NCBI GenBank assembly: GCA_903828655.1 | Contig: CAIKMX010000037.1 | Span: forward strand, 17,173 to 81,172 | DNA: 64,000 bases | Reading direction: 5' to 3' | Source of the DNA: an uncultured archaeon | GTDB taxonomy: Archaea > Nanobdellota > Nanobdellia > Pacearchaeales > GW2011-AR1 | Shown: piece after piece, positions 41,299 through 63,999 of the stretch | Layout: the number at the start of each line of letters is the position of its first letter | Numbering within the stretch: position 1 is the stretch's first letter | Program-made: the position numbers and the translations under genes | The notes under the pieces: generated by a model | Told to the model about the DNA's origin: nothing | Seen by the model: the letters and a program-made list of their open reading frames with translations, nothing else | Database searches by the model: none

Positions 41299-44200
41299 AT
41301 GAAAGAGGGGGGTGATTTGAGACTTTTTTTGGTGCTTTTTTTAGTTGCTTTTATTTTATTTGTCTCTGTTTTTTCCGCTTCTGTTGTTGATGCTGCGAAA
41401 TTGAAGGTTAGGGGTGTAAAGGCTGGAACTGGAGTATGGGCGGCTTCTGAACCTGATGAGTATGGGATTGTAGAAACTAATCACTGCAATTGGCTTAACA
41501 GAGACTATGAGATTGGAGATAGTTCTTATAACTGGTATTATGGGGATGCCCGAGGGTGCTCCCTTAGCTACGGGGCTAGTGATCCTCCATATTTGAGTAC
41601 GGTTTATGGGGATTTGATGTATGCTGATGGCAGGAGATGGATTGCGAGCGCTTATATTGTGAAAGATCTTAGTGAAAGAGGTGTTGAGAGCTACATAACT
41701 GCAAGCTTAAGGTTTGTCAGCGAGGGAATAAAGCCTGATGGTTCTTTTACTAACCTTAAAATCTCTCCTAGTCAATCTGAGTTTTATTATGAGAGATGGG
41801 AGAACCGTGCAATATGTCTTTCTTCGTTGTGTGGCCCCTTTAGTGTTATTCCAATTTGTTCCGGATGTGCTCTTGATGGGACAAAATTGATAGCTAAGGA
41901 TAGCGTATCAAACTGTGATTTAACTGAAGCGACGGTAGAGGTAGTAGGTTTTGATAAGGCTTGCGGGGATCTTGATCCGGGCACTTTTACTCACATAGAA
42001 AAAGTTAGCGGAACGGATCAGTACCTCCCCCCTTATTTTTCTTATCCTGATGGTGGGAAACAATTTGTTGACATTGGAGCCAGCAATTGCGATGCAATTT
42101 TAACATCTTACGCGCCTTTTGATCATGTACCCTCTGCTGATGGAAATGGATGTGATATTTATTTCAACAATCTTGATTATAAAGGGGGGGGTTCTTCGAT
42201 TTTTGGGAATAGAGCAGTTTTTCATTCTAGAAGTCCTTTAATTTTGTTAAAGTATCGCCCGTCTGGACAATCCGAAGTTGGAGTGATGTTCGATGCGAGC
42301 TATGATCCTTTTGGTCTTTCCCAATACCAGACTCCTGTAAGCATCGGTTTTGGAATGAAGTTTTCAAAAACCTCTCAGGCTTCCGAGGTAATTTCTTCCA
42401 GAGGAATTAATGAGTATAGTAATTATGTTCCTAGCGAGATGACTCCTGTTGAGGTTAGTACTGAGATTGACAGTCATAAGAGATTTGTTCTAGTTGCGGA
42501 TGCTTGGTTGTCTGCTAAGCAGATTGGGCAAGGAGCTTCTTCATGTAGCGATTGGGTCGTAAAGGCAGTCATAAGAGATTATTTCCAAAATTCAGAGGAT
42601 TTCACATCAAAGTGCGGAGGAATTACGACTACGACTCCGACGGAAGATACAAGTCCTAAAGAAAATGAATGTAAGGATGGTGAAAAGAGAGAATGTTATA
42701 CTGGTTCTACGGCAACTGCCGGAGTGGGTATTTGCATGAAGGGATTTAATTCTTGTTTATTCGGTAAGTGGCAGACAATGAGTGATGGGGGTTATATGTG
42801 TTTTAATGAAGTTACTCCTGGAAAAGAGATTTGTGATGGGATTGACAATGATTGCAATAATGTTGTTGACGATAAATCTTTTGCAGATTTAGATTGTGCA
42901 GATAAGAACAAGGGCAGTGATGGAAATCCTGATACTTCTTACAAATGTTCCAGTGGGAAATGTGTGAAGGAATGTGTTCCTAATTGTAATGGTAAGGAAT
43001 GCGGAAGTGATAGTTGTTTGGGAGTTTGTGGGACTTGTGTTGATGGAAAGACTTGCGGAACGGATGGAAAGTGTGCTGTGATAAAAGAATGCTCTTCAGG
43101 CAATCCGGGTGTCAAGGCTACAAGTCAGTCTGACTGTAATTCTAAGTCTGTCAAGGAGGATAAAAAATATACTTTTACTGGCCCTACTGGAACTCCTCCA
43201 TGTGACTGTGTTGAGAAGAAATGTGATAAGTCTATGGTTGGGCAGCAGATTGCTAGTGATTGTAAGACTGGGCAAACATTTCAGGATTATCCTACATGCA
43301 CGTGTACTGATAGTCCTGTAATTCCTGTTAAATGTGATGAATCTGCCGGATCCATGTGTGCCAGCGATGCTACGTGCAAAAAACTGTTAGGCGAAAAGCC
43401 CGATGCAGTTTCTAGAACATTTTGCAATCCTCAAACATGTACTTGTGCTTCAAGGGTTTGTAGTAAGAGTTCTTTAAGTGGTCATCCTCCGGATGAATGC
43501 GATGGAGATTATGATTGTCAGACTAAATATGGTATTGATTATGTTTGTGATCCTTTAAGTTGTAAATGTACTCCGGGTGTTTGTGGTCCGGGTGTTGGTG
43601 GTGGGAAGGTTAAATCTGATTGCCAATCTGGGGAAACTTTTTTTGGTTATCCTGTGTGCAAGTGTGATTATGGGGCCCCTCTGTTCTCGGTTGTGAGAGA
43701 TAATACTAAGAAGAGAGTTATTGATACGGGAGATCAACTTATTACTGACCCTACTAAAAAGACAGATTATGTTTATCTCGAATCTACAGATAAGTTTTAT
43801 TGTGATTTAGATTTCTTGGGTGAAGGCTATTTCTCGGGTGAAAGCCTTTTGCGGAGAGGTTATAAGATTGCTCAGACCGAAGTAAGTGCTCCCTCTCTAG
43901 GTAAATATGCATCTACTACTCTTGATAGTATTTACTTGGAGGCAAAAGATGATAATGGCAAGACGATTAAATATTATCTAAGCAATCAAGATCGTAGCCC
44001 TATTCTAAATAGGTGGAAGTGGTATTCCATTGATCAAAATCTTCTTTATAATGGGCCAGTTAATGATCCTAACAATGTTTTTAGTAAGCAGGACTTTTTT
44101 GATTACCAAGCTAATGCTGGAGATTTCTTCGGAAGAGAGGTTACTTGCAATGTTCAGTTGATTGCACCTTCAGAGACCTATAAGTCTGGGGTTTATGAAA

Positions 44201-47200
44201 CTAGAACTTCTAAACCGGTTGTTATAATCCCAAGAAATATAAAGAATCCGGATTATTATAAAAAGATTAGTAAGGCATTGTTCTTGTTCTCGGATGTTGA
44301 CTGGAAAAAAGCGTTGCAGTATATGCCGGTTATTAATACTGTAAAAGATATTGGTGGAACTAATTGTTTGAATATTCTTACTAATTCTCTTCAGTCTTTT
44401 TCTTCAACATCTAAATCCAAATGCTCTTATCCTTTGATTGTTTATAATTCTCCTACACTGGCAGAGAATTCTAAGTCTAAGATGGAGATATCTTCAGAAA
44501 AATCTTGGGCGTTAAAAATTGATTCTAGCATTGATGACTTTTTGGGAAAATCTAATCTTTATACCCCTGATACGATTTTTATCTCGGATATACTTGATAA
44601 AAAATATATTAATGCTCCTAAAGGGGCTGTATTTGATAGTAGAATAAGTTCGAGTTATGGTTCTGCTGTTAGCTCGGCTTGGAAGAATTATGGTGTTGTT
44701 ATTTTGGTCAATAAAGATGATAGTGAGGCTCTTATAAAAGCTGCGGAACTTGGCGTTTTTTTTGATGCACCTATTGCTATTGCAGATGATTCTGATTCTA
44801 ATTTTAAAGACCTAATTTCTAATAAACTTGTTATTAGTGTTGGTAGCTCTAAGAAAGGATTTGATGTTGTTGGATTGGATAATAAGCCCTCTAGTATTTT
44901 GAAAGACAATTTTAAAACTTCTGTGGGGCTAATTTATAATACTCCTTCAAAAAAGCTTAATCCAACTACTCTTGTCGGAAATGTTGGTCAAACATTTTCA
45001 ACTTTTATTAAAAGTCCAGATAAGATAAGTACTGTTGAGGATTTTTTAATTGTTGCTAAAAAACCAGAGTACATAGCTTTTGTTAATCCTAATGATATAG
45101 ATTCCAAATTTTGCAAGCCATCTGTAGATCATTGTAAGACTTCAATATCTTCTGCTATCTTGGCATCTTCAGATGCCTGGACATCGCACTTTGTTAGTGT
45201 TGATTCTCCTTGGGATTCTAGTAATGTTCAATCAGCTTCATGCAGTGCTTCTTCGGAGGATACTCTTCTGGCTAGAGCGTCGATACTGACCGGGGATCAA
45301 GAAAAGATTTTTAAGAATGTACGGGATGGAATAAGATCCTATGTGGATATTTTTACTGGTCTCGCTGGTGCTACGCCTACGGGTGCAGCTATCCTTGCTT
45401 CTCCAACACAAATTGGAACTGAACAGGTTTTTGTTCGTTCTTGCAGCGGTTATTGTAAAGAATACTCTAATATTGATTTATTGACAAAACAATATTTTTT
45501 AGATGATGATGGAAAACCCTTGCCTAAGTTGGATCCTGCAGATGTTTTTAGGGCATATTCTTTTGATATCGCGAATACGTTTTCTTATTCCAACAAATTG
45601 ATTTTTGATGCTAAACCTCAGTGCCCTCAAATGAGTTTAGAGGGGGGCTATGCTAATAATGCTGTTAACAAACTTCCTTCTTATGTAGGTTATCTGTTCG
45701 GGATGGTTAATAGTGACTGGAATCCTTCTTGGCTTCTCAAATATGATGCAGATTCAGTAATATCTCGTTCTTATAATGGTGGTAAGGTTTTTAAGTCCCC
45801 TGCGGATCTTGAGTTGTTTCTTCAGAAACAACCTCTCACAAGGATTAAAGGAAATAATGGCGATCTTCTTAGCTGCTATCTTCAATATCCCTGGCATCTG
45901 TCTTATGGGGGCGAGGGTTTTAAGTTGAAGATGTCTGACTTTAAAATCAATGATGATAAACAGAAGGCAGCGATTGTTTACTATTACTGGCTTATGAACG
46001 GTATAAGATATGGCTCTTTGGGAGCATATGAGAGTATTGCTACTATTGATTCTTTCCTGCAAAAAACAAAAGGGACTCCAGGGTATATGTCTGAACCTTC
46101 TGATTCTTCTACTGAATGGCTAAGGAAATACTTTAAGGACGATATAACTATCAAGATTAGTGAACTTAAGTCTCAAGGAGCTCTTAAAGAGGGACCTGAA
46201 AAGTTCGATAATTTAGTTCAGGAAGTTAGCTGGGGGCTTTCTATGCGTCAGTATTTTCTAGATAAAAAAAATGAAAAGGCTGTTGCATGTGGGCGCTATA
46301 TTGCCTTAATAGAGAGGGATTATGCTAAGTGGTATAGAAATAAGCCAATAGACTTTTTTGTTGATTGCTATGGGACAGGTAAACAAGAACATGGAATTGA
46401 TGATTATACCTCTAATTTGGGTGAGCGTCCCGAAGTACCTCTTGAGGTACGTAATAAAATGGGGGCCTTGGTTCGTGATGCAATGAATAGTAACGCTGAA
46501 TACAGGAAGTTCAATGAGATTTTTAAGGCACTATATCCTATGGCATTTGCTACTAAGTTTGAGAAGTCCGTTAAGTCTTATTATGAGGGAAGACCTACAA
46601 AGGAGTCAGAGTTTCCATATTTTTTGGCGCAGACTCTGATCGAGCAGAAAAAATCATTTAATTCACAAATTGATCTTGGGAAGGTGCCCAAAACTTTTAG
46701 TTTGACTAGCGAGGGTTATTTAGGTAAGGTGCAGTCTGTTGTCAGAAATGCTTTGAAAGAACAGCTTTTGGAGAATAGAAAAGAGATGGTAAAATATATC
46801 CAGGATGCTAACGATGCAATAGAGTGCATTCATACTGACGCAGTTGGGATGGATCCTCTTAAGGGACATTACAACAAGTGCAAAGAGAATGTAGATAATG
46901 TTCTAAAAAGGAGCCCTACTGTATCTGATTTTACTTCACAAAGATTGATTCGCTTGAAGAATAACCCTTCTCAGGCGAATTCAGATGCTGAGACAATTTT
47001 GTCTCAAAAGGAAATTACTGCTTCATATTATTTGAAGACAATGCCGGATGTAGTGGATATGACCAAGTTGAATGAAGAGGCTAAAGAGGTTGTAACTAAT
47101 TTTGCTATTAGTGCAGGTTTAACTATTGCAACTATGGGCATGTCTCAGGCGATTATAAATGCAAGAACTTTTATAGCTCTTCAAAAGGTTCCAGGGATTA

Positions 47201-49779
47201 CCGCTGTTGGGAGAGGGGCTGCAGTTCTAAGAGCAGCAATAGTCTTGGGACCTGATGCTTATTTTGCTTTTGAGGGAATTTCTAATGCTAACAAAGTTTG
47301 TAGTGATGTAAATATTAACCAGCTTGATAGTGTTATCGGCGGGGGTATTAATACACAACAGAAATATACTTTGGGGCCTAATGTTATCTCGGATTATTCT
47401 GCTTGTCATACTGCGATATTTATGGCCTCGGTTAATTTTGTAACGATGGCTCCATTTTGGATTGGCAAACCAGATCTTAGGGTGGTGAATCAATTTTCAA
47501 AGAGCTACTCTAATAATGTTTTGGTTAAAGCATTGGCTAGGCAGGATGACGCGATACAAAAGATAGCTGTTGCAGAATCAAAACTTAATATTGTGAAAAA
47601 AAACAGCAAATCGACTCATGATGAGATTGTGGCGGCCGAGAAAGAAGTAACTAAAGCAGAAAATGTTGCGAAAACCGTTTGGAAAAATGAGGTATTGACT
47701 GCGGCTAGGGGTGAGGCGTTGCCGTTCCTTCCCAATTCGGTAGACGATCTTGTTAACTCTGCAGGTAATTCTATCTGGAAGCCTATATCGACTTCTAAGA
47801 AGGATATTAAAATTACTCCAAATGTTCTTGATGAGGCAAAGATAGCCCAATTTTTAGCGCAGCAGAAGAAAGTCAATCCAAATTTTGTTCCAGTTTGGGA
47901 AAAATTAATCGCGCATATGAGGGAAAGAAGCATTGTCCCGCAAGAGGTTTATGATTCAGCACTTAGAGAGGCTACTCTCGCCTTAAGAAGGGAACTAGAA
48001 GCGCATCCAGATGTCCCCTATATTGTTTTGTGGGATGATGGTCCACGTAAGTCTGGGAGATTTATATTTGAAAAGGCTCAGGAGGATTTACAGGGTTTGC
48101 GTCCTCCAGCGCTAAAAATTTACACAGACGATGTAGGTCTGATGGTTCTTAAGGATGAAATTTGTAAGCTTCGTGCAAAAGGTAAAGATCCTATAATTGT
48201 TGTAATGGATGATGCGATATATACTGGGGAACAAATAGGTTTTACAACGTCTAAAGTTCGAAAGATCTATGAGTCTTTGGGTGCCGATAATCCTGAAATT
48301 TTTCTTGCTTCTCCTTTAGTTTCAAGTTTGGCAGAGAATCGTTTAGTTTCTATACCTGGAGTTAAGTTATTCACTTCGGGTAAGTCTAAAGAGTATATGA
48401 AGTCTATAAAAGAGATTCTTACTCCTCAAGAAATGGACATTTTGTCTCTTGGTTCACAGCAGTATGCTACTCTTACAATTCTTCCTACGAAATTTGCTGA
48501 TAGTGTTTCGGTTTATGATTTTCTTGCTAACAAGGTTCTAAAGTATGATTATGAGACTTATCAAAGATATGTTCCTTACAAGATGATTGGAAATTATCGA
48601 ACGGAGGAATTTAATCAGTTTACGCAATATGATGATGCGATTCGTAAATGGCTGGCTCGTAAGAAAGATAATCTTGTCGATGCCTATAATGATGGTACGC
48701 TGCAGGTTCCTTTCAAACCTTCTCCGAGTCCTGGTGGACCTGGTGCGGCGACACCGCCGTCTGTTAGTCCTCCATCAACTACTACTACGCCTGTTATCGG
48801 AGATACAGGCTATGCTACTCCTGTTCCAGTAACTAAAGTTACGGATCCTTCTTATACTGGCACAGGGGTTATGGAGCCTCCGATAATTCCTATTCCAGTT
48901 CCTAAGCCTGTTCCGGTGAAATGTCCTGTAATTGATTTTTCTCCTAAGGCTGCTTCCCTGTATAGCCTTGTTGATGATGATGCTATAGTAAGTTTAGCTG
49001 AATCAGTTATTGGAAGAGAGATTACAGATTCTAAAATGAGACAAGCAATAATTAATGCTCACAATGAACTTGATAACACTAAAAAGGCTAAGATTCTTTT
49101 GGATGCCGGATTTAATTCTACAATTCCTCGTAGTGATCCTCTTTCTGGGGAGGTTAGAAAATTGCTTGATAGCGGGGTTTGTGGTCCTCTAGACTATTCA
49201 AAAATTTTGCCTTATATGGTCCGTTCAAATTTTAAGACTGAATTTGCTGATGCTTGGACAAAGACCTCTGGATTTTTTGTTAATCCTAGGGATCAAACTA
49301 AGGGTTTTTTGATTGGAAAGGTTACGTCAGGAGATTCTGGTCCGGTTTTGCAATCTATATATGGAGACAATCAAGTACTCTTGAATTTTTATGGATCACA
49401 TCTTGCTAGCGTTCCAGTTGCCGTAAAAACAAAACTGAAGCCTGGTGCGGATATAGAACAGCTTCTAATAAATCTTGATTATAAATTTGCTGGTCCTAAT
49501 AATGAAGCGAACTTTATTGACACTTTGATAAAAAAAGGTTTTGATAAACCGAAGACTCTTAAGTCCGGTAGGGCAGTTAAAAATAGGGCTATTGACATTG
49601 AAATAACTTATCCTGCACCTGACGCTACTGGGAAGATGGTGGATTATGTTCAGGAGTTTGAGCTTGAGTTTGATTCTTCTTCATATTCTAGTGCGGTAGC
49701 CGCTTCAAGAAGTGGTTGTTCTGTTAATCTTGAACTTACACATATTTTTCCAAATAAAAACGCAGTAAGGTTGCCTTAG
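41299..49779 (+). CDS. giant (2826 aa) secreted Cys-rich multidomain surface protein
   Basis: Leader MKEGGDLRLFLVLFLVAFILFV. A Cys-rich block includes CDGIDNDCNNVVDD (MopE-like metal-binding motif) and CDKSMVGQQIASDCKTGQTFQDYPTCTC. There is a Pro/Thr-rich linker near aa 2470 and a PRTase-like IVVMDDAIYTGEQ segment. The long ORF is uninterrupted. Confidence 0.8.
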   Translation: MKEGGDLRLFLVLFLVAFILFVSVFSASVVDAAKLKVRGVKAGTGVWAASEPDEYGIVETNHCNWLNRDYEIGDSSYNWYYGDARGCSLSYGASDPPYLSTVYGDLMYADGRRWIASAYIVKDLSERGVESYITASLRFVSEGIKPDGSFTNLKISPSQSEFYYERWENRAICLSSLCGPFSVIPICSGCALDGTKLIAKDSVSNCDLTEATVEVVGFDKACGDLDPGTFTHIEKVSGTDQYLPPYFSYPDGGKQFVDIGASNCDAILTSYAPFDHVPSADGNGCDIYFNNLDYKGGGSSIFGNRAVFHSRSPLILLKYRPSGQSEVGVMFDASYDPFGLSQYQTPVSIGFGMKFSKTSQASEVISSRGINEYSNYVPSEMTPVEVSTEIDSHKRFVLVADAWLSAKQIGQGASSCSDWVVKAVIRDYFQNSEDFTSKCGGITTTTPTEDTSPKENECKDGEKRECYTGSTATAGVGICMKGFNSCLFGKWQTMSDGGYMCFNEVTPGKEICDGIDNDCNNVVDDKSFADLDCADKNKGSDGNPDTSYKCSSGKCVKECVPNCNGKECGSDSCLGVCGTCVDGKTCGTDGKCAVIKECSSGNPGVKATSQSDCNSKSVKEDKKYTFTGPTGTPPCDCVEKKCDKSMVGQQIASDCKTGQTFQDYPTCTCTDSPVIPVKCDESAGSMCASDATCKKLLGEKPDAVSRTFCNPQTCTCASRVCSKSSLSGHPPDECDGDYDCQTKYGIDYVCDPLSCKCTPGVCGPGVGGGKVKSDCQSGETFFGYPVCKCDYGAPLFSVVRDNTKKRVIDTGDQLITDPTKKTDYVYLESTDKFYCDLDFLGEGYFSGESLLRRGYKIAQTEVSAPSLGKYASTTLDSIYLEAKDDNGKTIKYYLSNQDRSPILNRWKWYSIDQNLLYNGPVNDPNNVFSKQDFFDYQANAGDFFGREVTCNVQLIAPSETYKSGVYETRTSKPVVIIPRNIKNPDYYKKISKALFLFSDVDWKKALQYMPVINTVKDIGGTNCLNILTNSLQSFSSTSKSKCSYPLIVYNSPTLAENSKSKMEISSEKSWALKIDSSIDDFLGKSNLYTPDTIFISDILDKKYINAPKGAVFDSRISSSYGSAVSSAWKNYGVVILVNKDDSEALIKAAELGVFFDAPIAIADDSDSNFKDLISNKLVISVGSSKKGFDVVGLDNKPSSILKDNFKTSVGLIYNTPSKKLNPTTLVGNVGQTFSTFIKSPDKISTVEDFLIVAKKPEYIAFVNPNDIDSKFCKPSVDHCKTSISSAILASSDAWTSHFVSVDSPWDSSNVQSASCSASSEDTLLARASILTGDQEKIFKNVRDGIRSYVDIFTGLAGATPTGAAILASPTQIGTEQVFVRSCSGYCKEYSNIDLLTKQYFLDDDGKPLPKLDPADVFRAYSFDIANTFSYSNKLIFDAKPQCPQMSLEGGYANNAVNKLPSYVGYLFGMVNSDWNPSWLLKYDADSVISRSYNGGKVFKSPADLELFLQKQPLTRIKGNNGDLLSCYLQYPWHLSYGGEGFKLKMSDFKINDDKQKAAIVYYYWLMNGIRYGSLGAYESIATIDSFLQKTKGTPGYMSEPSDSSTEWLRKYFKDDITIKISELKSQGALKEGPEKFDNLVQEVSWGLSMRQYFLDKKNEKAVACGRYIALIERDYAKWYRNKPIDFFVDCYGTGKQEHGIDDYTSNLGERPEVPLEVRNKMGALVRDAMNSNAEYRKFNEIFKALYPMAFATKFEKSVKSYYEGRPTKESEFPYFLAQTLIEQKKSFNSQIDLGKVPKTFSLTSEGYLGKVQSVVRNALKEQLLENRKEMVKYIQDANDAIECIHTDAVGMDPLKGHYNKCKENVDNVLKRSPTVSDFTSQRLIRLKNNPSQANSDAETILSQKEITASYYLKTMPDVVDMTKLNEEAKEVVTNFAISAGLTIATMGMSQAIINARTFIALQKVPGITAVGRGAAVLRAAIVLGPDAYFAFEGISNANKVCSDVNINQLDSVIGGGINTQQKYTLGPNVISDYSACHTAIFMASVNFVTMAPFWIGKPDLRVVNQFSKSYSNNVLVKALARQDDAIQKIAVAESKLNIVKKNSKSTHDEIVAAEKEVTKAENVAKTVWKNEVLTAARGEALPFLPNSVDDLVNSAGNSIWKPISTSKKDIKITPNVLDEAKIAQFLAQQKKVNPNFVPVWEKLIAHMRERSIVPQEVYDSALREATLALRRELEAHPDVPYIVLWDDGPRKSGRFIFEKAQEDLQGLRPPALKIYTDDVGLMVLKDEICKLRAKGKDPIIVVMDDAIYTGEQIGFTTSKVRKIYESLGADNPEIFLASPLVSSLAENRLVSIPGVKLFTSGKSKEYMKSIKEILTPQEMDILSLGSQQYATLTILPTKFADSVSVYDFLANKVLKYDYETYQRYVPYKMIGNYRTEEFNQFTQYDDAIRKWLARKKDNLVDAYNDGTLQVPFKPSPSPGGPGAATPPSVSPPSTTTTPVIGDTGYATPVPVTKVTDPSYTGTGVMEPPIIPIPVPKPVPVKCPVIDFSPKAASLYSLVDDDAIVSLAESVIGREITDSKMRQAIINAHNELDNTKKAKILLDAGFNSTIPRSDPLSGEVRKLLDSGVCGPLDYSKILPYMVRSNFKTEFADAWTKTSGFFVNPRDQTKGFLIGKVTSGDSGPVLQSIYGDNQVLLNFYGSHLASVPVAVKTKLKPGADIEQLLINLDYKFAGPNNEANFIDTLIKKGFDKPKTLKSGRAVKNRAIDIEITYPAPDATGKMVDYVQEFELEFDSSSYSSAVAASRSGCSVNLELTHIFPNKNAVRLP

Positions 49780-49803: not shown

Positions 49804-50436
49804 TTATCCTCTTTTTGAAATAATTTCTTCATATCTTCTTGTAGTTTGCATGTACTGCTCTTCTATATCTCTATCTGCACTATCTTGGGCTTTAGCCATT
49901 CTTATAGCTCTTTGGTGGTTGGGTTCTGTTTTTGTACTGGATGAAATAAGTACATTGGCCTTCTCTGCAAGCCAGGATCTTCTTGATAAAGATTCAAGGT
50001 CTTTTGGGTCTCTTTCTTTGTTTCTTTTTACTGCTTCTTCTAAGACTGTTGCAATCTCTTCTTTGTATTTTTGGTCCATTTCTCTTGGGGAGATATTTAC
50101 TAGGATGTTTACGGCTGCTTCAAATTCTTCAGCAGTATAATCTCTTTGGAAAAATTCTTTTATTCCGGATAGAATTGGTTTACTATCTGCTTCATTTAAT
50201 TGATAAAGCTCTTGTATTATCCTTAGAAATCTGCTTCCTTCTGAAACATCAGGATTTATCTCTCGGCATTTGCATGCAAGGGCCGTAAAATTTTTACCCA
50301 AGTTGTAGCGTATTCTTTCCGCGTCATCACCAGTTATTTGTTTAACTCTTGAATAAAAATCTTGTGGATTAGTATCTGCGAACATTCTTTGAATTGCTTC
50401 TCTTGCGGTTCTTGTCGGAGTGTATTTTTTTGCCAT
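49804..50436 (-). CDS. hypothetical helical protein, last gene of the RHH-ARH operon
   Basis: 210 aa, 5 nt downstream of the preceding gene on the same strand. Confidence 0.5.
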   Translation of the reverse strand: MAKKYTPTRTAREAIQRMFADTNPQDFYSRVKQITGDDAERIRYNLGKNFTALACKCREINPDVSEGSRFLRIIQELYQLNEADSKPILSGIKEFFQRDYTAEEFEAAVNILVNISPREMDQKYKEEIATVLEEAVKRNKERDPKDLESLSRRSWLAEKANVLISSSTKTEPNHQRAIRMAKAQDSADRDIEEQYMQTTRRYEEIISKRG

Positions 50437-50441
50437 TTTTT

Positions 50442-51224: not shown

Positions 51225-51225
51225 G

Positions 51226-55541: not shown

Positions 55542-58500
55542 ATGAAAGAGAGGGGTGATTTGAGATACTTTTTGTGCTTGTTGATAGTTGCGTTTGTCTT
55601 TTTTGTTTTGTTTTTACCTAATTTTGTTTATGCTGAGACCATAGCCACGTCTTTTCCAAAGTTTTCTGTATCGGGGATAACTAACAATGATTGGACATTT
55701 ACAGACAGTTCTGGGAGTACAAATGTAAGATGCGAGCAGTTTAACAAAGCGTATGATTTCTCTTCTGTCAAGGCGCTTGATCCTGCCGATGGTTTTTTGA
55801 TAACCGAGGGGGTTCCGTATACTACAAGCGCTCCCGCTGATTCCTTTACAACTTCTGATTATTATGGTGATCAGAGAGATTGCGGATATGTTGCTTCTTA
55901 TGATACGAATTATTACTTTAGAGCGGGTGCTCCTCCCGCTGGCGAGCCGAGAGTTCAGGGCGTTGTGCGTACATTTTCAAATCTTATGTGGGCGGATAAC
56001 AAAGCATGGATTTTGAGGTTGCAGAATACGTGGGAAGAACCATGTTCTTTTCAAGAATCTTATTTTCGTCCTTTGGGGATTCCTGTCCCTGCGTGTATTT
56101 CGAGTTGGGGTAGGGGCTTTTTTTATTATAGTTCTGTTAGTGTTGCAAATGAGGGAGAATTTGTTGCAGGGGATGATAGAAAACAGTATAGTTCTAACAG
56201 TTGGAATCTGGTTAATGGTCTTGGATGGACTTCCTTTGAGAGGGGACCATATCAGGTAAAACAAGAGGGGGGTTGTAGTGTAAGCAACAATAATCCCGTT
56301 TCTATTTCTGCTAAAGAACTTTCAACTCTTAAGTGTAGTTATGGGGAGCCAAATACACATACTGAATATTGGGAAGGAAGCAATAAATTTGTTTATGGTA
56401 GTGGGTGGGATGTTCCTGCTAGTGCTTTTAATTTGGCTGGAATGTCGAAGAAGGATTTTGATAATAAAATAATTGGATCTAAGCCAAGTACAGACATGAT
56501 GACCTATCTTCCTCTCCCCTATTATAAGAGAGATTACTGTGACGTGTTTTTAGGAGAATATTTATTTCAGGGAGCTTCTTCTAATCCGGAAAAATCTATA
56601 TGCCGATTTGTTTATGGGTCATATCGTCCGGGGGCTGTTTCTCCGACTTTGTGTACTAAAGAGGGTTTGAAGGGTCCTGTGATGTATTTGGAGTACAATC
56701 TTGCTAAGGCAGGGACGTCTGATGAGTGGACTGGAGGGATTTATTTTAATGGAGTGTATAATCCCTTCTCTGATAGCTCATTTAGTTCAAAAGAGAAATG
56801 TGACCTTGCTCAGGCGGTGGATGTTGGTTTTGGTTTAGATCTTAAGATGCTTGATGCAGGTTCACTCGATGCACCGATTAGTGCTTTATATGGCAATCCG
56901 CAGTTAGAATATTCTGCTAAGAACTACATTTCCGAACTAAGAAGTTCGATTGATATTTCTTCACAGTATAAGGATCCAAATACTAAGACTGTGGTATTTG
57001 CTCTTGAACCAAATTATGCTTTGAACAAGAAGATTTCTGGTGCATCCAAAAAGTTTGTTTCTGGTGTTAGTGATTCTATATGCAACGATTGGAAAATGAA
57101 AGTTGCTATAAAGAAATCTGAATTGGAAAGTGCATTTGCTGCAGGAGGACCTTGCAGTGGTTTAAAGATTACCCCTGAGGTGATTTCTCCCACGACTAAA
57201 TGTAAAAATGGAGTTGTTGATATTGCTGATGGTGAGCAGTGTGATTTTGAGGTAACTAATGGTATTGTAAATCTTAACAAGCCCGTATTTATATCTGGTT
57301 TTGAAAAGTGTGAGAATTTTAATGGATATAGTTTATTTAATCCGGAGGGAAAGATTTATACCGGAGGGGTTTTAAAATGTAATCCTGCAGACTGTAGGTT
57401 TGATAAAAGTTCGTGCATTGAATCGTCTGCTACATGTAAAGAAGGTGATATAAAGCTTTGTTCTGAGTTTGTTCCAAAAGATTTGAAGGCGACGAGGGGA
57501 GTTTGTGCGGGTTCTTATGCGACTTGCACTGCTGACGGGAAATGGCCTGCAAAATGTACCGAAGAGGATTACAAGAAAATAGAGGACTATTACAATACTG
57601 ATATGGGGGGAGGGATTAAAGAGGTAAAGTGTGATGGAAAAGATAATGACTGTAATGGTCTGATAGATGATGTTGGGGGAGATAAGGCAAGGGCGGACGA
57701 GTTGTGCAGTGCCAAGACTGGAAGGTATCCAGATGGGTCTCGTCCTAAATGTTTTGGCGATCTCTTTCAAAATGAACGGCTTGATGGATGCGGATGTCGT
57801 GTTTCTGGTGATTGTTCTGATGTTTTTAGTGCGTGCAAGCCTATTGGTGGTGGTTTTGATTCTGGAGTTAAGGGTGTTGTTGATGGGGATGATTTGGGAA
57901 TATGCAAGAAGTGTGAGCTCACAAATGGAGACCAGTGTGAAAATGATGTGATGTGCGCTACATTTGGTTCTAATAAAATATGCTCGCATTGCCAGTGTGT
58001 AGATAAACAGTGCACTGTTGCAACGCAAAATAAAGATTGTCCTGCTATGACTACTCTTGGGTTGTTCAAACAGGAATGTGTTAATGAGAGATGTGTTGAC
58101 AGAACAAAATGCCAAGTTAATCCTTGGGGGGATATTTGTAATAATGGTCCTGGAGTTCAGCTTAAAGATAATAAGTGCACAGATCCTGCAAATCCCGTGT
58201 GTGTTGGACCCCCTTCAAGTAATGGGGGATGCAGATGTGCCAAGGGTGTTTGTGATAACTCTATGTTTGGACAGCAGCTTGCCAGTGATTGTAAGACTGG
58301 ACAAACATTTCAGGATTATCCTACCTGCAAGTGTGTTGAGAATGAGGGGTATTATAAGTCTCCTTCTGTTTGCGGAGATGGAAAAGTTAGCGGAAATGAA
58401 GAGTGTGATTTTGTTTCAGATCCTGTGAATCCAGGAAAGTTATTGTTTGCTGCTCCTGATTTTAAGAAACCTTTAATGACAACCGATTCTAATTGTGGCA

Positions 58501-61500
58501 AGAGCGTTACCCCATTTGGAGATCTTTCGACTAAGCCAGCATGCATTCCTCCGGTAGCGTATGCATTTGAGGGCCAGGGGGGTTTGCAGGCCACGAACAA
58601 TAAAAATAATGAATGCAAGTGCAGAGCAGAATTTGTGATGCCCATAATCATTCCTTCTACTTCAGGGTGTAAGAAAAATTATTTTGAGGGCCCGGATGGC
58701 AAGATATTGAGGGCATGTGACAATATTGTTGCTCCTGATTTGCTTCCGAGTATTGATGTTAGTGCGAGTGTTGTATCAAATGATGTTACTTCGTGTTGTG
58801 ACCCTAATTCTTATGCAGCTAAGGGAAAATCTATTAGTGTCGGAGTTCAGTTATATCTTCCAATTAATGGAAAGATGGATAAGATAAGATTTATAGATAC
58901 GTCAAAGATTGACTCAACTTCTTTTACAGGGGATCTTGATAAGACAAAGACAGGACATACCTTAACTTCTCATGGCGATGGAACATTCGGAGGGATTGAG
59001 GATTCTCATGGTCTTGATCCTGAAGGAATATTTGGGACAGCCGATAAGACGAGTGGAAGGAAAGGAAGAGAAGATGGTTCTGTAGATGTTTATGTTAAGT
59101 ATCTGGGGGCTGAGGGAAGTGAGGATTGCATGACATATGTTGGAGTTATGATACATGGCTATGCGGGTCTTGGAGGTAATAGAGAAAATAGATACTGCAC
59201 AGCTACTGTTCCTGGTCATTTAAGGAAAGGGTCTTTTGTGCTTATGGATTATACCAACTGTTTTGATTGGGATCCTAATGGCAAGGCTCCACTTCAGGGT
59301 AAATATATGCAAGAAAAACAATCTTATCTGGGAGATAATAGCAGACTTGTTGTTGATATTCTTGATGAGCCTTGCGGGGTTTGTGAGCTAACTAATTTAC
59401 ATTGGGAGATAGATGGAAAGTCTATAGGTCCTGTAAGTTCAGTGATTGCAGGAGATAGTAAAAAAGTAACTCTTGTTGCCAACGCAAAAAATTGTGCAGG
59501 AAAAAATATTTTTCCAGAAATTTATGAGTCTGTTAGTACCGGGTTTCTTCAATCTAAGAATGTGAGAGTTGGATTTGATACTTTTGTTAAGATTGATAGT
59601 AAAAAGTTTTCTGCAGAGTGGAATCCTGTTTATTCTAGTGCTGGGAGCAAGGGAAATAAATATTTCTTTAGTTTATCCAATCCTGATGATAATAATCTTT
59701 TTTCAAGTATAAAGAGTATACTGCTTAAGGTGAATGGTCCTTCTAAAGAGAGGGTGGGTAGTACTATAAAGGTTGTGCTTCCATCTCAGATAGATGCGGC
59801 TAGTTTTATTCCAGGTTCTCAGGCTATGATTCAAATGCCTTCTTTTAATATAAGACTTGCAGATAATTCTGAAGTTACTTGTCCAGGAATGACGATTATA
59901 CAGACCCCTATTGTTAATGAACGGGGAGAGGTTACTGGAGTATCTAACAAAGTTCCCCCTGTTGTTTGTCCTCCTAAAGATTCAAAGAGTTCTAGCTCTG
60001 GTTCTTCTAGTAGTAAGAAGGTATATACTATTAGTGTTGATGATTTTGTTACGAAATTTAAAACTCCCCTAGACCCTCGTCTCCTTTCTAATAAGAACAT
60101 AAAGATAGTTGTTAGTCTTCCTGATTCAACCGAGAAAGATAAGAAAGCTGAATTTGAAATACAACTTGAGGGAGGGAAATTTGTTTTAAGCAAAGACCAG
60201 GGGGGCTGTATGCTTAATGGGGTTTGCTTTTATGTTTTGACTCCTGCGGAGGTTACTAAAGAAGCTCCTAAGAAACTTCCCGCTGTTCCTGCGACGATAA
60301 ACGAGATAACTAAGGGTGATGGGGAGCCGACTAATAATGTTGCAGATTCGTGCGAGATTTTAAAATTGGCGAAGAGTGTTGATTTTAAGCTGAGTGCGCA
60401 GTGGACTCTTGATAAGAGAATTGATGAAACTATCAGCCTGAGTTTGGTGAAAGATAAGACGGCTTCTGATAGTTCGTTCGCAGGGGTTATACCGGTTTAT
60501 AGCGGAGAGAAGATTGTTTCCCTTCCGGATGTGGATGAAAAAGGGATGGCTATAAAAAAAGGTAACGTTGATTGGCTTGTTGAGGTTAAGTTAAGTCATG
60601 TTGCGAACGGAAATATTCTTGAGTATACAAGTGGGGCGAGTGTTAAGCCTTCGTCTAATATCTATGTTGCAATAAGAAAGGTGGAATACAAACAAGTATG
60701 GTTTGAAAAGAAAGCAGTTCCTCTTTATGGATGGAGTTATTCTGCGATGACCCTTCCTAATGGAGGATATTTCAAGGCTAATGTTTGGCAAGAGATGTTT
60801 AAGAAGATTAGTGGAGACATGGGGGATATGAAGTTCATGATTGCAACTGATTTGTGTACCAGTGCAAATTGTGAAAAACAAACTGGAAAGATAAATTACA
60901 ATCATTATCCTGGAATGGCGGTTGCAGATGTTGACAGAAGCAGATTTACTTATGATTTAATGAAAGTGCATCTTGCTGCAGGTAGTGAGGGTTTTACAGA
61001 GTATCAAAGTGCGAGAGGCGGGCATAAACTTGATGCTTCATATTATCCTGACAAGGTTGGTCTTTGTGATGTTGATACTGGAATTGGATGGAGCTCTGGA
61101 GGAAAGTGGGTTGCAGAGAGTATGGTCGAGGCATATAATATAATGAACAAAGTTTATACAAAGAATACATTGAATAAATATTATACTCAATCATTTATAC
61201 TTCTTGATGGTACAGGCTCACGTAATGGGGAAGTTGATGGATTTTCACTTGATAAGCTGCCTCCGACTGTTCCTTGCTTCCTTAATTTTAGAATGGATAC
61301 GGGATTTGGGGGAGTTACAAATGATAAAAATAGAGAGTTGTTATTCCAGGTCCAGGATGTTCCATATAATATTGATGTTGGTGGACACTGGGGAGTTAGA
61401 AGCCCGGTCGTTACTGGAGCTATCGCTTTCTTCAATGATAATCTGAAGAATAAGAATCTTGTTAAGGTTGATGTGTCTACGGGTAAGGCAGATTGCTCCG

Positions 61501-61682
61501 GTATGAAGAATGCGATGAAGATGTATCTGTCAGAAGTTGCTACGCTAGATAGAAGCCATACTAGAGAGTATCTTACTGATAGTGATGTTGCTTTTATTAA
61601 TGGTGTGCTGAATAAACTTTCTAAAGACCTCGGCACTGGAAAAATTTATAATATCAAACGTGATACTGTCGTGAGGTTATAA
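55542..61682 (+). CDS. giant (2046 aa) secreted Cys-rich multidomain surface protein, paralog of 41299-49779
   Basis: Leader MKERGDLRYFLCLLIVAFVFFV, VKCDGKDNDCNGLIDD, and CDNSMFGQQLASDCKTGQTFQDYPTCKC (58250-58337, about 88% nt identity to 43223-43308). Confidence 0.8.
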   Translation: MKERGDLRYFLCLLIVAFVFFVLFLPNFVYAETIATSFPKFSVSGITNNDWTFTDSSGSTNVRCEQFNKAYDFSSVKALDPADGFLITEGVPYTTSAPADSFTTSDYYGDQRDCGYVASYDTNYYFRAGAPPAGEPRVQGVVRTFSNLMWADNKAWILRLQNTWEEPCSFQESYFRPLGIPVPACISSWGRGFFYYSSVSVANEGEFVAGDDRKQYSSNSWNLVNGLGWTSFERGPYQVKQEGGCSVSNNNPVSISAKELSTLKCSYGEPNTHTEYWEGSNKFVYGSGWDVPASAFNLAGMSKKDFDNKIIGSKPSTDMMTYLPLPYYKRDYCDVFLGEYLFQGASSNPEKSICRFVYGSYRPGAVSPTLCTKEGLKGPVMYLEYNLAKAGTSDEWTGGIYFNGVYNPFSDSSFSSKEKCDLAQAVDVGFGLDLKMLDAGSLDAPISALYGNPQLEYSAKNYISELRSSIDISSQYKDPNTKTVVFALEPNYALNKKISGASKKFVSGVSDSICNDWKMKVAIKKSELESAFAAGGPCSGLKITPEVISPTTKCKNGVVDIADGEQCDFEVTNGIVNLNKPVFISGFEKCENFNGYSLFNPEGKIYTGGVLKCNPADCRFDKSSCIESSATCKEGDIKLCSEFVPKDLKATRGVCAGSYATCTADGKWPAKCTEEDYKKIEDYYNTDMGGGIKEVKCDGKDNDCNGLIDDVGGDKARADELCSAKTGRYPDGSRPKCFGDLFQNERLDGCGCRVSGDCSDVFSACKPIGGGFDSGVKGVVDGDDLGICKKCELTNGDQCENDVMCATFGSNKICSHCQCVDKQCTVATQNKDCPAMTTLGLFKQECVNERCVDRTKCQVNPWGDICNNGPGVQLKDNKCTDPANPVCVGPPSSNGGCRCAKGVCDNSMFGQQLASDCKTGQTFQDYPTCKCVENEGYYKSPSVCGDGKVSGNEECDFVSDPVNPGKLLFAAPDFKKPLMTTDSNCGKSVTPFGDLSTKPACIPPVAYAFEGQGGLQATNNKNNECKCRAEFVMPIIIPSTSGCKKNYFEGPDGKILRACDNIVAPDLLPSIDVSASVVSNDVTSCCDPNSYAAKGKSISVGVQLYLPINGKMDKIRFIDTSKIDSTSFTGDLDKTKTGHTLTSHGDGTFGGIEDSHGLDPEGIFGTADKTSGRKGREDGSVDVYVKYLGAEGSEDCMTYVGVMIHGYAGLGGNRENRYCTATVPGHLRKGSFVLMDYTNCFDWDPNGKAPLQGKYMQEKQSYLGDNSRLVVDILDEPCGVCELTNLHWEIDGKSIGPVSSVIAGDSKKVTLVANAKNCAGKNIFPEIYESVSTGFLQSKNVRVGFDTFVKIDSKKFSAEWNPVYSSAGSKGNKYFFSLSNPDDNNLFSSIKSILLKVNGPSKERVGSTIKVVLPSQIDAASFIPGSQAMIQMPSFNIRLADNSEVTCPGMTIIQTPIVNERGEVTGVSNKVPPVVCPPKDSKSSSSGSSSSKKVYTISVDDFVTKFKTPLDPRLLSNKNIKIVVSLPDSTEKDKKAEFEIQLEGGKFVLSKDQGGCMLNGVCFYVLTPAEVTKEAPKKLPAVPATINEITKGDGEPTNNVADSCEILKLAKSVDFKLSAQWTLDKRIDETISLSLVKDKTASDSSFAGVIPVYSGEKIVSLPDVDEKGMAIKKGNVDWLVEVKLSHVANGNILEYTSGASVKPSSNIYVAIRKVEYKQVWFEKKAVPLYGWSYSAMTLPNGGYFKANVWQEMFKKISGDMGDMKFMIATDLCTSANCEKQTGKINYNHYPGMAVADVDRSRFTYDLMKVHLAAGSEGFTEYQSARGGHKLDASYYPDKVGLCDVDTGIGWSSGGKWVAESMVEAYNIMNKVYTKNTLNKYYTQSFILLDGTGSRNGEVDGFSLDKLPPTVPCFLNFRMDTGFGGVTNDKNRELLFQVQDVPYNIDVGGHWGVRSPVVTGAIAFFNDNLKNKNLVKVDVSTGKADCSGMKNAMKMYLSEVATLDRSHTREYLTDSDVAFINGVLNKLSKDLGTGKIYNIKRDTVVRL

Positions 61683-61690
61683 AATCCTTT

Positions 61691-63313
61691 ATGAGAAAGA
61701 AGATAAGATATTCTCCTGTGAAAAATAAAAGAAGTAAATTTGGGTGGATTGTTGGAATTTTAATTATTCTCGCTATTATTGGTTTTTCTTTATATTTAGA
61801 ATATGGAAGCAGTCTTTTTTCTTTTCTAACTGGAAACGCCGTTGCTTCTGAAGGTGCTAAACAAATGAGGGAGAATTGTTATATTGTTAGTGCAATTGTA
61901 GGAAAGAGCGATAGCCTTATTACTGTTTATGTTTCTGCTTATCCTGGAAGTGTTGAGAATAATGTTTTGAGCAATGCTTTTTTGTCTAAGGTGACGATTG
62001 ATGCGTATAGGACTAATGAACCTGGGGAGACTTCACGTTCATGGAATGTTATAGGATTATGTGATTCTGAAACTGTAAGCCATTCTTCTTTGTTGAAGAT
62101 GACGAGTTCTGATGATTCGAGTTCTAGCTCGACTTCTAGTCTAACGTCTGGTGAAGGGCAGGCATCATGTCTTGATATTGATTGGGAATCTTTTATTTAT
62201 GATTCTAGTGTTTATGCATGCAGTTGTACTGGTGAATCATCTTCGTCAAGTTCTTTAAGTAGTTCGGATATTATTTCTCCTTCAATTACTGGGGCTGCGA
62301 TAACAGGATATAGTGTTTCCAGCGACGCCCAGAATGCGGTTCTAAAAAGAGGAATATATATTTCTCTTAGTGGGAGGGAGGCATATTATGTTGTGAATGA
62401 TGATGGGGCAATACAGAAACTAAATTGGGGTAAAATGAAGGATATAAAATTAGTTAGTTCATCAGTCGGTACAGGGGGATATAGCATTCAGACTAATATG
62501 AAAGCCTTGGATAATCTCAAGGATTCATTTGAGGCTTTGCCTTATGCCGAGGAGAATACTGTTCGTGACTTGTTAAGAAAAGATTTCTATTTTGGTACTC
62601 GAAGGGATTTGGAGAGTGAAATGAATGGAAAGTCTCCGGGCGTTCTTGGAGCTTTTGACTATGCAATGCTTGCAATGGGTAAGGGAATTAGTTCTGGCGA
62701 TCCTGAAAAGGGAGATTGTCCCCTTAGTATTTATGTTTCAAAGTATTATTATAGTAATGATAAACTAGACGGAGATTGGCTTATGGCTTTGGTAAGGGTT
62801 AAGGGAATAGAGGCTGAATATGTAAAGAATGAGATTGCGCGTACGCCAGTTGCTGAAAAGACGATTGCATGTCCTGAAAAACAGATTCCAAAGTGTGAGA
62901 TTATACCGGAGTGTACAAAAAAGAAGGATTGCGAGATTAAACCTCCTTTCCATAAGGATTATGTTCTTTGTGTGGCAAGTAAGTGTGAGGAGGATAAGGA
63001 AAAAGCAAAGCTTGTACTTGGTGCGATGATTCCTGGATTATTGCCTTCGGATGATTATATTGCTCTTGGTAAAGATGGGTTTTTTATTTCAACTGATCCT
63101 AAGAAGCCTAAGGTTTTTGCTTTGGATGTGAAAGTTGAAACGTTAGATGTGATTGAAAACTCTTTTGTCAAGGGAGATGTTTTAGCAGGTTTTATTATTA
63201 AGAAATCTGTCAGCGGGTCTAATGGGCTTTCTCATCTTGTTGTGCTTAGGGTAGGATTGGTTGGTCCACCTAGTAAGCCTAAACTTAGTTATGTTACTAT
63301 TAGCAATTCTTAG
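61691..63313 (+). CDS. membrane-anchored paralog-family protein (Ser-rich)
   Basis: TM helix IVGILIILAIIGFSLYL, then ENCYIVSAIVGKSDSLITVYVSAYPGSVENNVLSNAFLSKVTIDAYRT...WNVIGLCDSETVSHSSL. The DNA of this block is about 90% identical to 53490-53640. Confidence 0.6.
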   Translation: MRKKIRYSPVKNKRSKFGWIVGILIILAIIGFSLYLEYGSSLFSFLTGNAVASEGAKQMRENCYIVSAIVGKSDSLITVYVSAYPGSVENNVLSNAFLSKVTIDAYRTNEPGETSRSWNVIGLCDSETVSHSSLLKMTSSDDSSSSSTSSLTSGEGQASCLDIDWESFIYDSSVYACSCTGESSSSSSLSSSDIISPSITGAAITGYSVSSDAQNAVLKRGIYISLSGREAYYVVNDDGAIQKLNWGKMKDIKLVSSSVGTGGYSIQTNMKALDNLKDSFEALPYAEENTVRDLLRKDFYFGTRRDLESEMNGKSPGVLGAFDYAMLAMGKGISSGDPEKGDCPLSIYVSKYYYSNDKLDGDWLMALVRVKGIEAEYVKNEIARTPVAEKTIACPEKQIPKCEIIPECTKKKDCEIKPPFHKDYVLCVASKCEEDKEKAKLVLGAMIPGLLPSDDYIALGKDGFFISTDPKKPKVFALDVKVETLDVIENSFVKGDVLAGFIIKKSVSGSNGLSHLVVLRVGLVGPPSKPKLSYVTISNS

Positions 63314-63362: not shown

Positions 63363-63662
63363 TTATTTTTCAAGTCCGCTTTGATTTGCATTTGCAGGTC
63401 TTGAATACTGTATGTTTTGATAGGTATTTTGGGTGCTTTGATTGTAGGCATTTATGTCTTCGCAAGAACATCTAATGCTGCTGCAGAATATGCTGGCTGC
63501 AATAACTACTGCTGTGCCCAGAGCCGTTGCTATCCTTGATGTTTTTCTTGTTCTTGATTTTTCTAAGTCATAAAATCCGTTTGCCATATTATTCTTCAAG
63601 ATATATTGTTTATAAGTCTTTCTATTTGTTATCACTATATAGTTACTATGAATATTGAACAT
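63363..63662 (-). CDS. small hypothetical membrane protein
   Basis: 99-aa ORF with one hydrophobic helix (IATALGTAVVIAASIF). Weak. Confidence 0.25.
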   Translation of the reverse strand: MFNIHSNYIVITNRKTYKQYILKNNMANGFYDLEKSRTRKTSRIATALGTAVVIAASIFCSSIRCSCEDINAYNQSTQNTYQNIQYSRPANANQSGLEK

Positions 63663-63693: not shown

Positions 63694-63999
63694 ATGAGAA
63701 AAGGAGGTTTATTGGGGTCGCTTATTTTGATAGTTGTTGTTCTGGCGATATTTGGAATTGTTTATTCTGTTTATGGAAATAGTTTATTTGGTTTTATGAC
63801 CGGAAATGTTGTTGCTAATGGGGGGGTTGTAAATATTGCTGAGGAATGTTTTGTTCTTCAGTCAGAGGATAGCGATGGAAAAATCATCGGGCCAATTTAT
63901 GTTGTGGCCTATACTGGGAGCAGTGAGTATGTAGAGCTGAACAAACTGTTGCCTGTCGGGGCGATTAAAACTGGGGATGTTATTTCTGGTTATAGAAGT
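63694..63999 (+). CDS. N-terminal fragment of a third member of the membrane-anchored paralog family (runs off the window)
   Basis: Has MRKGGLLGSLILIVVVLAIFGIVYSVYGNSLFGFMTGNVVANGG...EECFVLQSED...IYVVAYTGSSEYVELNKLLPVGAIKTGDVISGYRS, the same architecture as the 53280 and 61691 N-termini. Confidence 0.55.
   Translation, partial: MRKGGLLGSLILIVVVLAIFGIVYSVYGNSLFGFMTGNVVANGGVVNIAEECFVLQSEDSDGKIIGPIYVVAYTGSSEYVELNKLLPVGAIKTGDVISGYRS

Follow-up and report, generated by a model that had tools for sequence, protein, structure and literature searches.

Background

Polymorphic toxin loci are known from archaea (PMC6393860), and phosphoribosyltransferase (PRTase) domains, which serve as toxic effectors in conflict systems such as ShosT (PMC11961720) and retron Eco11 (PMC12746101), recur in conflict-system polyvalent proteins (PMC5512222). 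Among giant surface proteins, the nanohaloarchaeal SPEARE and SVXNc_0300 are exported by the Sec pathway, reach several thousand residues and have been proposed to act on the host (PMC10266531). Here we describe a locus in a stretch of 64,000 nucleotides (nt) from contig CAIKMX010000037.1 of an uncultured archaeon (hereafter the window, to which all positions refer), which encodes two giant exported proteins, G1 and G2, and three paralogous membrane-anchored proteins, P732, P540 and P3. On balance, we consider that the locus encodes modular exported effectors with exchangeable payloads, comparable to polymorphic toxins.

G1 resembles the proteins of polymorphic toxin systems in its large size, its export and the succession of conserved N-terminal and central parts and a variable, enzymatic C-terminal payload; the nearest homolog of its central part ends in a Hint domain, with additional PT-HINT cassettes at its locus, and patches reminiscent of recombination are found between G1 and G2 and between the paralogs. 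The differences concern the release domain and the adjacent same-strand immunity gene, both of which G1 lacks, the payload, in which a PRTase-CE domain is joined by an orphan domain, the N-terminal head, confined to G1 and G2, and the host, a probable DPANN archaeon. With the PRTase-CE family (PF24390) and with ShosT, retron Eco11 and the polyvalent PRTases, G1 shares the predicted type I PRTase fold and conserved motifs, but its copy lies below Pfam detection, has lost the histidine of the 'FDH' motif and is located near the C-terminus of a Sec-exported protein of 2826 residues. SPEARE and SVXNc_0300 resemble G1 and G2 as giant Sec-exported proteins of DPANN-type archaea; however, no sequence similarity to them was detected, and their Ig-like arrays, transmembrane (TM) segments and VirB4/TraG-like ATPase have no counterpart in G1 or G2, which are distinguished by a Cys-rich stalk and by the toxin-type chassis plus PRTase. 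Concerning P732, the HExxHxxxGLxDEY signature is the one of peptidase family M64 (the Clostridium ramosum IgA peptidase; the Bacteroides lipoproteins 4df9 and 3p1v), but P732 is TM-anchored at both ends, carries a paralog-specific N-terminal domain and aligns significantly only over the signature.

Results

Chassis of G1

Residues 1627-2826 of G1 were used as the query of a HMMER search against 1.84 billion representative proteins, which returned 20 matches falling in two regions. Protein P0031 matches the central part of G1, here called the chassis, over residues 927-1644 and 1808-2108 (E-values of 4.6e-34 and 1e-16). Scans of genomes and metagenomes with the G1/P0031 alignment recovered a full gene in a Nanoarchaeota metagenome-assembled genome (MAG; L002:338-5965, 1875 residues), the product of which aligns with G1 over 1243 residues at 24% identity (blastp, E-value 1e-50) and consists, in this order, of a TM anchor, a MopE motif that passes the threshold at 37 bits, the chassis and, at the end, a Hint domain. 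On the contig encoding P0031 (L001), two open reading frames (ORFs) with PT-HINT domains (PF07591) lie downstream of the chassis gene and alternate with small ORFs without assignment and with a Metallophos phosphoesterase gene of opposite orientation, an arrangement classically seen at polymorphic-toxin loci. The term adhesin, which the initial annotation had applied to both giants, is not the most fitting one for G1, the C-terminal two thirds of which share homology with a protein of the Hint/PT-HINT polymorphic-toxin type and bear a PRTase-CE domain near the end.

The last 300-550 residues (approximately) of the chassis are predicted to be helical, with Gly/Ala-rich hydrophobic helices, and the same helical module was found in P0032, P0038 and P0042, whose sequences diverge past it; judging from its sequence, this end of the chassis is a candidate for membrane insertion or translocation. 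A profile of the chassis gave nothing significant against PDB sequences.

Another contig of the Nanoarchaeota MAG organism (L003, 99.9% identical to L002) provided further side observations. The gene preceding the G1-like giant (L003, 1123-3654) encodes a long Asn/Ser/Gly-repeat protein that resembles a beta-helix (NosD) protein by eye only, and its N-terminal region has a weak match (E-value 9e-6) to a 259-residue protein of the window (3755-4534). Further upstream (L003, 23-880), an ORF fragment resembles, again by eye only, a secretion ATPase of the PilB/FlaI type.

Phosphoribosyltransferase domain and C-terminal end of G1

Near its C-terminal end G1 matches P0028 (E-value 8.9e-35), a protein with ten tandem PRTase-CE copies (PF24390, E-value 7e-87), and all nine aligned homologs of the G1 segment match PF24390, with a best E-value of 3.8e-11. 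The family motifs VLWD...S.R and (V/I)xDDAxY(S/T)GxQ are kept in G1. The family-invariant residues that it retains include the loop for binding phosphoribosyl pyrophosphate (PRPP), IVVMDDAIYTGEQ at 48196-48234, which follows the pattern of a hydrophobic strand, DD and x-x-S/T-G. An AlphaFold2 (AF2) model of the segment, built on an alignment of 10 sequences, reached a pLDDT of 85.9 and a pTM of 0.85; when it was searched with Foldseek, the top matches were hypoxanthine-guanine phosphoribosyltransferases (probability 1.00) and the best PDB folds were type I PRTases. A profile of the PRTase alignment found nothing significant among PDB sequences. As modelled, this part of G1 is a divergent PRTase-CE domain with a type I PRTase fold. 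The PRTase-CE family is found in giant multi-copy proteins and not in salvage operons. In one genome (GCA_015233405.1, locus L005), two adjacent giants of at least 3535 and of 4003 residues, composed mostly of tandem PRTase-CE domains, adjoin a secretin gene.

A Pro/Thr/Ser-rich linker connects this domain to the end of G1, for which the HMMER search of the 1.84 billion proteins returned only G1 itself and PADLOC returned no match.

Avoidance of N-glycosylation sequons

Archaeal surface-layer proteins are typically N-glycosylated. We counted sequons (N-x-S/T, where x is not P) in the proteins of the window and compared them with expectation. G1 contains a single sequon where 20.0 are expected, located at residue 2606 in the C-terminal orphan domain, and G2 contains none (16.7 expected); sequons are likewise missing from P540 (3.3 expected) and from a beta-helix protein encoded at 1477-3750 (8.1 expected). 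No depletion was seen in the cytoplasmic proteins of the window or in the remaining exported ones, and one protein with dockerin motifs even exceeds expectation (8 against 3.2). Control tripeptides (D-x-S/T and N-x-A/G) occur at normal frequency. Counter-selection of glycosylation in part of the exported proteins is unusual among archaeal surface proteins, and the avoidance of sequons fits proteins that need to remain unglycosylated. Such avoidance would be expected where a protein unfolds, threads through a channel or acts inside another cell.

A promoter-like element shared by three gene groups

A 46-nt element, composed of a TTTATAA-type box followed by TTTCTATTTGTTGT..CT.TA.AGT, was observed upstream of G1, upstream of the gene string that includes G2 and upstream of P3. 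Allowing at most one mismatch, its core occurs at these three sites only in the window. This distribution suggests three co-regulated transcription units.

Shared front end of G1 and G2

By blastp, the homology between G1 and G2 is confined to the first 800-1000 residues or so, that is, to the leader, an N-terminal domain and a Cys-rich stretch; the parts that follow, about 2000 residues in G1 and about 950 in G2, have no similarity to each other, are of ordinary composition and are not Cys-rich. The initial annotation had proposed a tandem cassette of related, Cys-rich giants. Its two giant ORFs proved intact, and the relationship stands for the N-terminal parts, which are homologous, but not for the C-terminal halves, which are unrelated; similarly, the richness in Cys holds for residues 400-800 of G1 and 500-1100 of G2 (approximate limits) and not for the remainder. 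The leaders are indeed shared, with 15 of 24 residues in common and 74% nt identity. In a hydrophobicity scan the leader is the sole strong hydrophobic segment of G1, and in G2 the signal peptide comprises residues 1-31; export or anchor signals, as had been claimed, are present in both giants and in all paralogs.

The shared N-terminal domain covers approximately 420-540 residues, extending in G2 to about residue 560, and is marked by the motifs YYGD.R.C, LM.AD..WI, GFG, Y.PF and C.DW.K. A profile of the G1/G2 alignment of this domain (alignment A3) identified no further member among local sequences and no match to the N-terminal region of the Nanoarchaeota homolog, and a scan of viral contigs with the domain found none. 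A word-index search with the same pair of sequences returned nothing, but since the query's own record was not returned either, this is a weak negative; with full-length G1 the sole match was G1, again a weak negative.

In the Cys-rich stretch, both giants contain the MopE-like motif reported initially, CDGIDNDCNNVVDD in G1 (42832-42873) and CDGKDNDCNGLIDD in G2 (57630-57671), although it scores below the cut-off of 27 for PF11617 (Cu-binding_MopE): 20.6 bits in G1 (E-value 5.5e-4) and 15.2 bits in G2 (E-value 0.026), where in both cases just the C-terminal half of the 30-residue motif (CxxGxDNDCDGxxDE-type) aligns. A second shared motif, of 28 residues and rich in Cys, corresponds to a direct repeat of 89 nt (43222-43310 in G1, 58251-58339 in G2) with 89% DNA identity, and a third, diverged copy is located in G1 at 43582-43670. 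Of its 24 identical residues, 20 are encoded by the same codon, against 12.6 expected from codon usage, and in the 30 codons flanking the motif identity falls to 30-34% at the nt level. Such a sharply bounded patch fits gene conversion, and the recent recombination suggested by the initial annotation is in agreement with the excess of codon identity and the abrupt borders.

Searches of G1 and G2 against Pfam, NCBIfam, PHROGs and PDB sequences gave nothing significant besides the sub-threshold MopE motifs, and in particular no Ig-like, cadherin, beta-helix or S-layer repeat domain; self-blastp of the giants revealed no internal repeats. The C-terminal 950 residues of G2 (approximately) have no detectable relative and no family match, and G2 has no similarity to the homologs of the G1 chassis or to the PRTase homologs. 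Neither PHROGs and NCBIfam nor PADLOC gave a meaningful match to giants, paralogs or the operon convergent to G1; a BrxA match of 17.6 bits was judged spurious.

The anchored paralog family

P732, P540 and P3 start with a TM anchor and a conserved domain of about 85 residues, as initially described, and then diverge: in P732 and P540 Ser/Thr-rich linkers lead to unrelated ectodomains with distinct C-termini. Both of these genes are intact, so that they do not appear as pseudogene fragments. P732 and P540 are 56% identical over a region of about 100 residues (blastp, E-value 2e-28), and at the DNA level they share blocks that are 86% and 93% identical; the DNA identity of about 90% that had been attributed to the whole family holds therefore for this pair, but not for the domain of P3, which is only 47-60% identical to that of P732 in nt although the TM region reaches 80-84%. 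The similarity of P540 to P732 is highest in the domain (93% nt), that of P3 to P732 in the TM segment (84% nt). Judging from these identities, the paralog family is a mosaic.

The paralog domain matched no described family in the Pfam, NCBIfam, PHROGs and PDB sequence searches, and the same was found for the shared N-terminal domain of the giants, so that the initial view of two unrecognised families is maintained. Relatives of the paralog domain were found neither in GTDB genomes nor in JGI metagenomes, and these scans revealed no co-occurrence of giant and paralog genes. A word-index protein search with P732 was a weak negative, since it returned nothing and the query's own record was also missing. 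The cluster representative of P540 is a low-complexity protein of 42 residues, and such representatives can hide true members.

The HEYGH motif and the C-terminal anchor reported for one paralog are both found in P732, in which a Ser/Thr/Pro linker leads from the TM anchor and the conserved domain to an M64-like zincin; a C-terminal TM segment (55341-55430) and a basic tail come last. The zincin signature HEYGHTFCGLSDEY, within 54546-54593, aligns to PDB entries 4df9 and 3p1v (VVHEFGHSFGGLADEYFY) with E-values of 0.036-0.05; over the HExxHxxxGLxDEY signature, HEYGHTFCGLSDEYLY in P732 corresponds to HEFGHSFGGLADEYFY in these two structures, and about 22 residues align. PF09471 reaches 13.4 bits against a cut-off of 26 (E-value 0.043), covering profile positions 146-166 only. 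From this signature, the head of P732 is predicted to be an M64-like zinc peptidase.

Class III (pilin-type) signals follow the FlaFind rule [KRDE][GA]/[ALIFQMVED][ILMVTAS]x3 before a hydrophobic stretch. As candidates for such signals the paralogs were rejected: checked by eye, MRKRGFFGS, MRKGGLLGS and KNKRSKFGW each break one position of the rule, and no Pfam pilin family matched. A TM helix followed by a motif similar to (L/I/F)(T/S)G(N/K/F)x(V/P) was also noted at the N-termini of the proteins starting at 3755, 12424, 16802, 53292, 61691 and 63694; this is possibly a sorting or cleavage signal specific to the lineage.

Organization of the locus and source of the DNA

The features of the locus are collected in Table 1. 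P732 lies 63 nt upstream and P540 8 nt downstream of G2, in one gene string headed by S256; G1 is separated from P732 by three minus-strand genes and S256. The statement that each giant is followed by a paralog is therefore correct for G2, which has one paralog before and one after it, and incorrect for G1, which is followed by the convergent operon and S256. In that operon, the genes of which are tightly packed, the 260- and 210-residue proteins are without family match in Pfam, NCBIfam, PHROGs and PADLOC.

Table 1. Coordinates of the features described in the text
Feature	Position	Strand	Remarks
Promoter-like 46-nt element, copy 1	41141-41186	+	upstream of G1; repeat family D9
G1	41299-49779	+	2826 residues, uninterrupted ORF (8.5 kb), exported giant
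G1 Sec-type signal peptide	41299-41394	+	residues 1-32, ...SASVVDA/A; hydrophobicity scan, cleavage site by eye
G1 N-terminal domain common with G2	41395-42648	+	about 27% identity; alignment A3 and blastp
G1 Cys-rich region	42649-43698	+	12% Cys; one MopE-like motif and two Cys-motif copies
G1 chassis	44077-47628	+	residues 927-2110; homologous to Hint-terminated Nanoarchaeota protein
G1 predicted PRTase-CE-type phosphoribosyltransferase domain	47809-48651	+	residues 2171-2451
G1 Pro/Thr/Ser-rich linker	48700-48920	+	read from sequence
G1 C-terminal orphan domain	48921-49776	+	about 290 residues
Convergent three-gene operon	49804-52185	-	210-residue protein, 260-residue protein, ADP-ribosylglycohydrolase
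ADP-ribosylglycohydrolase	51226-52185	-	PF03747, E-value 3.4e-74
Promoter-like 46-nt element, copy 2	52364-52409	+	upstream of S256-P732-G2-P540 string
S256	52459-53229	+	256-residue secreted protein with signal peptide
P732 paralog	53292-55478	+	732 residues; true ATG at 53292 (initially annotated at 53280)
P732 conserved domain	53427-53678	+	about 85 residues
G2	55542-61682	+	2046 residues, uninterrupted ORF (6.1 kb), exported giant
P540 paralog	61691-63313	+	540 residues
P540 conserved domain	61859-62110	+	followed by Ser-rich linkers and C-terminal domain without family
Promoter-like 46-nt element, copy 3	63609-63654	+	upstream of P3
P3, third paralog	63694-64000	+	cut by window end

The source of the window is an archaeon: GatD and GatE are both encoded in it, which indicates an archaeal source, and two of its housekeeping proteins cluster with entries named as coming from archaeal MAGs. 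The organism is probably a DPANN archaeon. The proteins of interest, all from a single NCBI/ENA contig of 94 kb, form singletons when the protein collection is clustered at 90% identity.

Other observations in the window

Directly upstream of G1, on the minus strand (40199-41095), a membrane-anchored protein with an SLT lytic transglycosylase domain is encoded, a bacterial-type murein hydrolase in an archaeon. A second paralog family, with dockerin-type motifs, is encoded at 12424-13620, 16802-17980 and 3755-4534, and its DNA repeats are found at 29-185, 4331-4487 and 16919-17075 and between 12473-12609 and 16848-16984. A sister MAG (locus L006) has a syntenic PDDEXK-VTT-trypsin-ProRS block in which both dockerin genes are missing, and because of this absence they are regarded as strain-variable insertions. 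The intergenic motif GTAACATnTGTGGAGGAATCGT occurs just past gene ends at 6215-6260, 10557-10596, 16584-16623, 32769-32808 and 38917-38969, and might act as a terminator, processing site or promoter. Palindromic repeats, CTTTCTTTAGAAAAGAAAG...TTGGTG, were observed in two intergenic regions (4669-4787 and 38764-38840).

Discussion

Proposed modular effectors with exchangeable payloads

The reading that we favour on balance is that each of these proteins combines a conserved N-terminal module for export and presentation with an exchangeable C-terminal payload. G1 would be a giant effector in which the Sec signal peptide is followed by a binding head of about 420 residues, a Cys-rich stalk, a delivery chassis of about 1200 residues and a payload consisting of the PRTase-CE domain, the Pro-rich linker and the orphan end domain. 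G2, which has leader, head and stalk in common with G1, would be a sibling that carries another payload. The three paralogs may be membrane-tethered accessory ectoproteins, built on a common anchor and juxtamembrane domain with variable heads, and the M64-like peptidase of P732 might process the giants or attack the surface of the target. PRPP, the substrate of type I PRTases, is a cytoplasmic metabolite, and for this reason an exported PRTase seems sensible only if it is delivered to the cytoplasm of another cell. We infer that the PRTase of G1 would enter a host or competitor cell and there perturb or hijack nucleotide or PRPP metabolism. Short, nearly identical DNA patches and mosaic copies point to recombination between conserved modules, which would explain the patches and would be the route by which payloads are swapped in such systems.

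A bolder version of this proposal, which we hold to be rather unlikely, is that the giants are deliberately unglycosylated, thread or insert into the host membrane through the helical module, deliver the PRTase and so redirect the PRPP and nucleotide metabolism of the host; in the same version G1, G2, P540 and the beta-helix protein would form one co-regulated host-manipulation toolkit, diversifying by module exchange.

Several results weigh against delivered effectors. Pfam recognised no Hint, PT-HINT or peptidase domain in G1 or G2, nor does G1 have another recognised release module. The genes after G1 are convergent, leaving no immunity gene directly downstream on the same strand; the gene after G2 encodes an exported paralog, and no spare toxin-immunity cassettes were seen within the window. 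To consider the convergent operon as an immunity or antidote set for G1 is speculative, and the neighbourhoods of PRTase-CE genes elsewhere gave no support to such a role for the ADP-ribosylglycohydrolase operon. Taken alone, the PRTase segment of G1 is too divergent to match Pfam even at E-values up to 10, and the near-invariant histidine of the 'FDH' motif is replaced, so that the enzyme could be catalytically altered. Concerning the chassis, the scans of genomes and metagenomes found it in one other lineage only (L002/L003), and its payload polymorphism consists of two architectures; the AF2 model of residues 927-2110, from an alignment of 5 sequences, had a pLDDT of 31.7 and no assignable fold, and it is only the sequence character of the helical module that suggests translocation. 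The Nanoarchaeota homolog of the chassis is not depleted in sequons. Finally, no payload of G2 or homolog of it was found.

Alternative explanations

The initial annotation had interpreted G1 and G2 as giant adhesins or surface-layer proteins for host attachment, with the paralogs as their dedicated partner or processing proteins in a repeated two-part module, and we regard this as possible although unlikely. Proteins of this kind could well have the signal peptides, the very large size and the Cys-rich stalks bearing MopE-type motifs that are seen here, and DPANN archaea are known to have giant surface proteins (PMC10266531). The tight flanking of G2 by two paralogs, one of them peptidase-like, agrees with a partnership, and the C-terminal half of G2, which has no enzyme signature, could be a binding region. 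However, no paralog follows G1, and two thirds of this protein are of the Hint/PT-HINT toxin type, with an enzyme domain there that requires a cytoplasmic substrate. Neither Ig, cadherin or other repeat domains nor internal repeats were detected, the giants are nearly free of sequons, whereas glycosylation would be typical of surface-layer proteins, and giant and paralog were not found together in any other genome scanned.

Archaea of this type, with their small genomes, are dependent on scavenging, and it could be proposed that the locus encodes enzymes and binding proteins, extracellular or pseudo-periplasmic, by which the cell scavenges nutrients for itself and maintains its envelope, with the PRTase serving nucleotide salvage and the M64-like protein supplying peptides, and no delivery at all. 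A peptidase-like ectoprotein in the locus, the SLT transglycosylase close by and the lack of a recognisable immunity gene are consistent with this proposal. Nevertheless we find the proposal improbable, given that PRPP is not present outside cells and an extracellular PRTase would have no substrate, that the nearest relative of the chassis is accompanied by pre-toxin HINT cassettes and that PRTase-CE domains belong to giant multi-copy proteins rather than to salvage operons.

That the similarity of the cassettes is an artefact of assembly duplication or collapse, or that the genes are decaying pseudogene fragments, is very hard to believe: the contig is metagenome-assembled, but the giant ORFs run uninterrupted, their products are only about 27% identical, with just patches of 57-123 nt at 80-93% DNA identity, and the paralogs are intact with distinct C-termini.

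Significance

What is new in these modular exported effectors, as we favour reading them, is the combination of the head domain, a chassis family ending in Hint-toxin or PRTase-CE domains, the anchored paralog family and the avoidance of sequons. This avoidance sets the giants apart from the ordinary glycosylated surface proteins of the cell, and, should it mark proteins bound for the outside or for the inside of another cell, it could be used as a simple means to predict archaeal effectors genome-wide. DPANN archaea lack most biosynthesis, and among the means by which they may take resources from other cells or fight them, giant surface proteins of disputed function are the main suspects. The locus described here gives a concrete architecture to consider, in which a head, a stalk, a toxin-type chassis and a predicted enzyme of nucleotide metabolism are joined in one exported polypeptide, together with a sibling that would carry a different payload.

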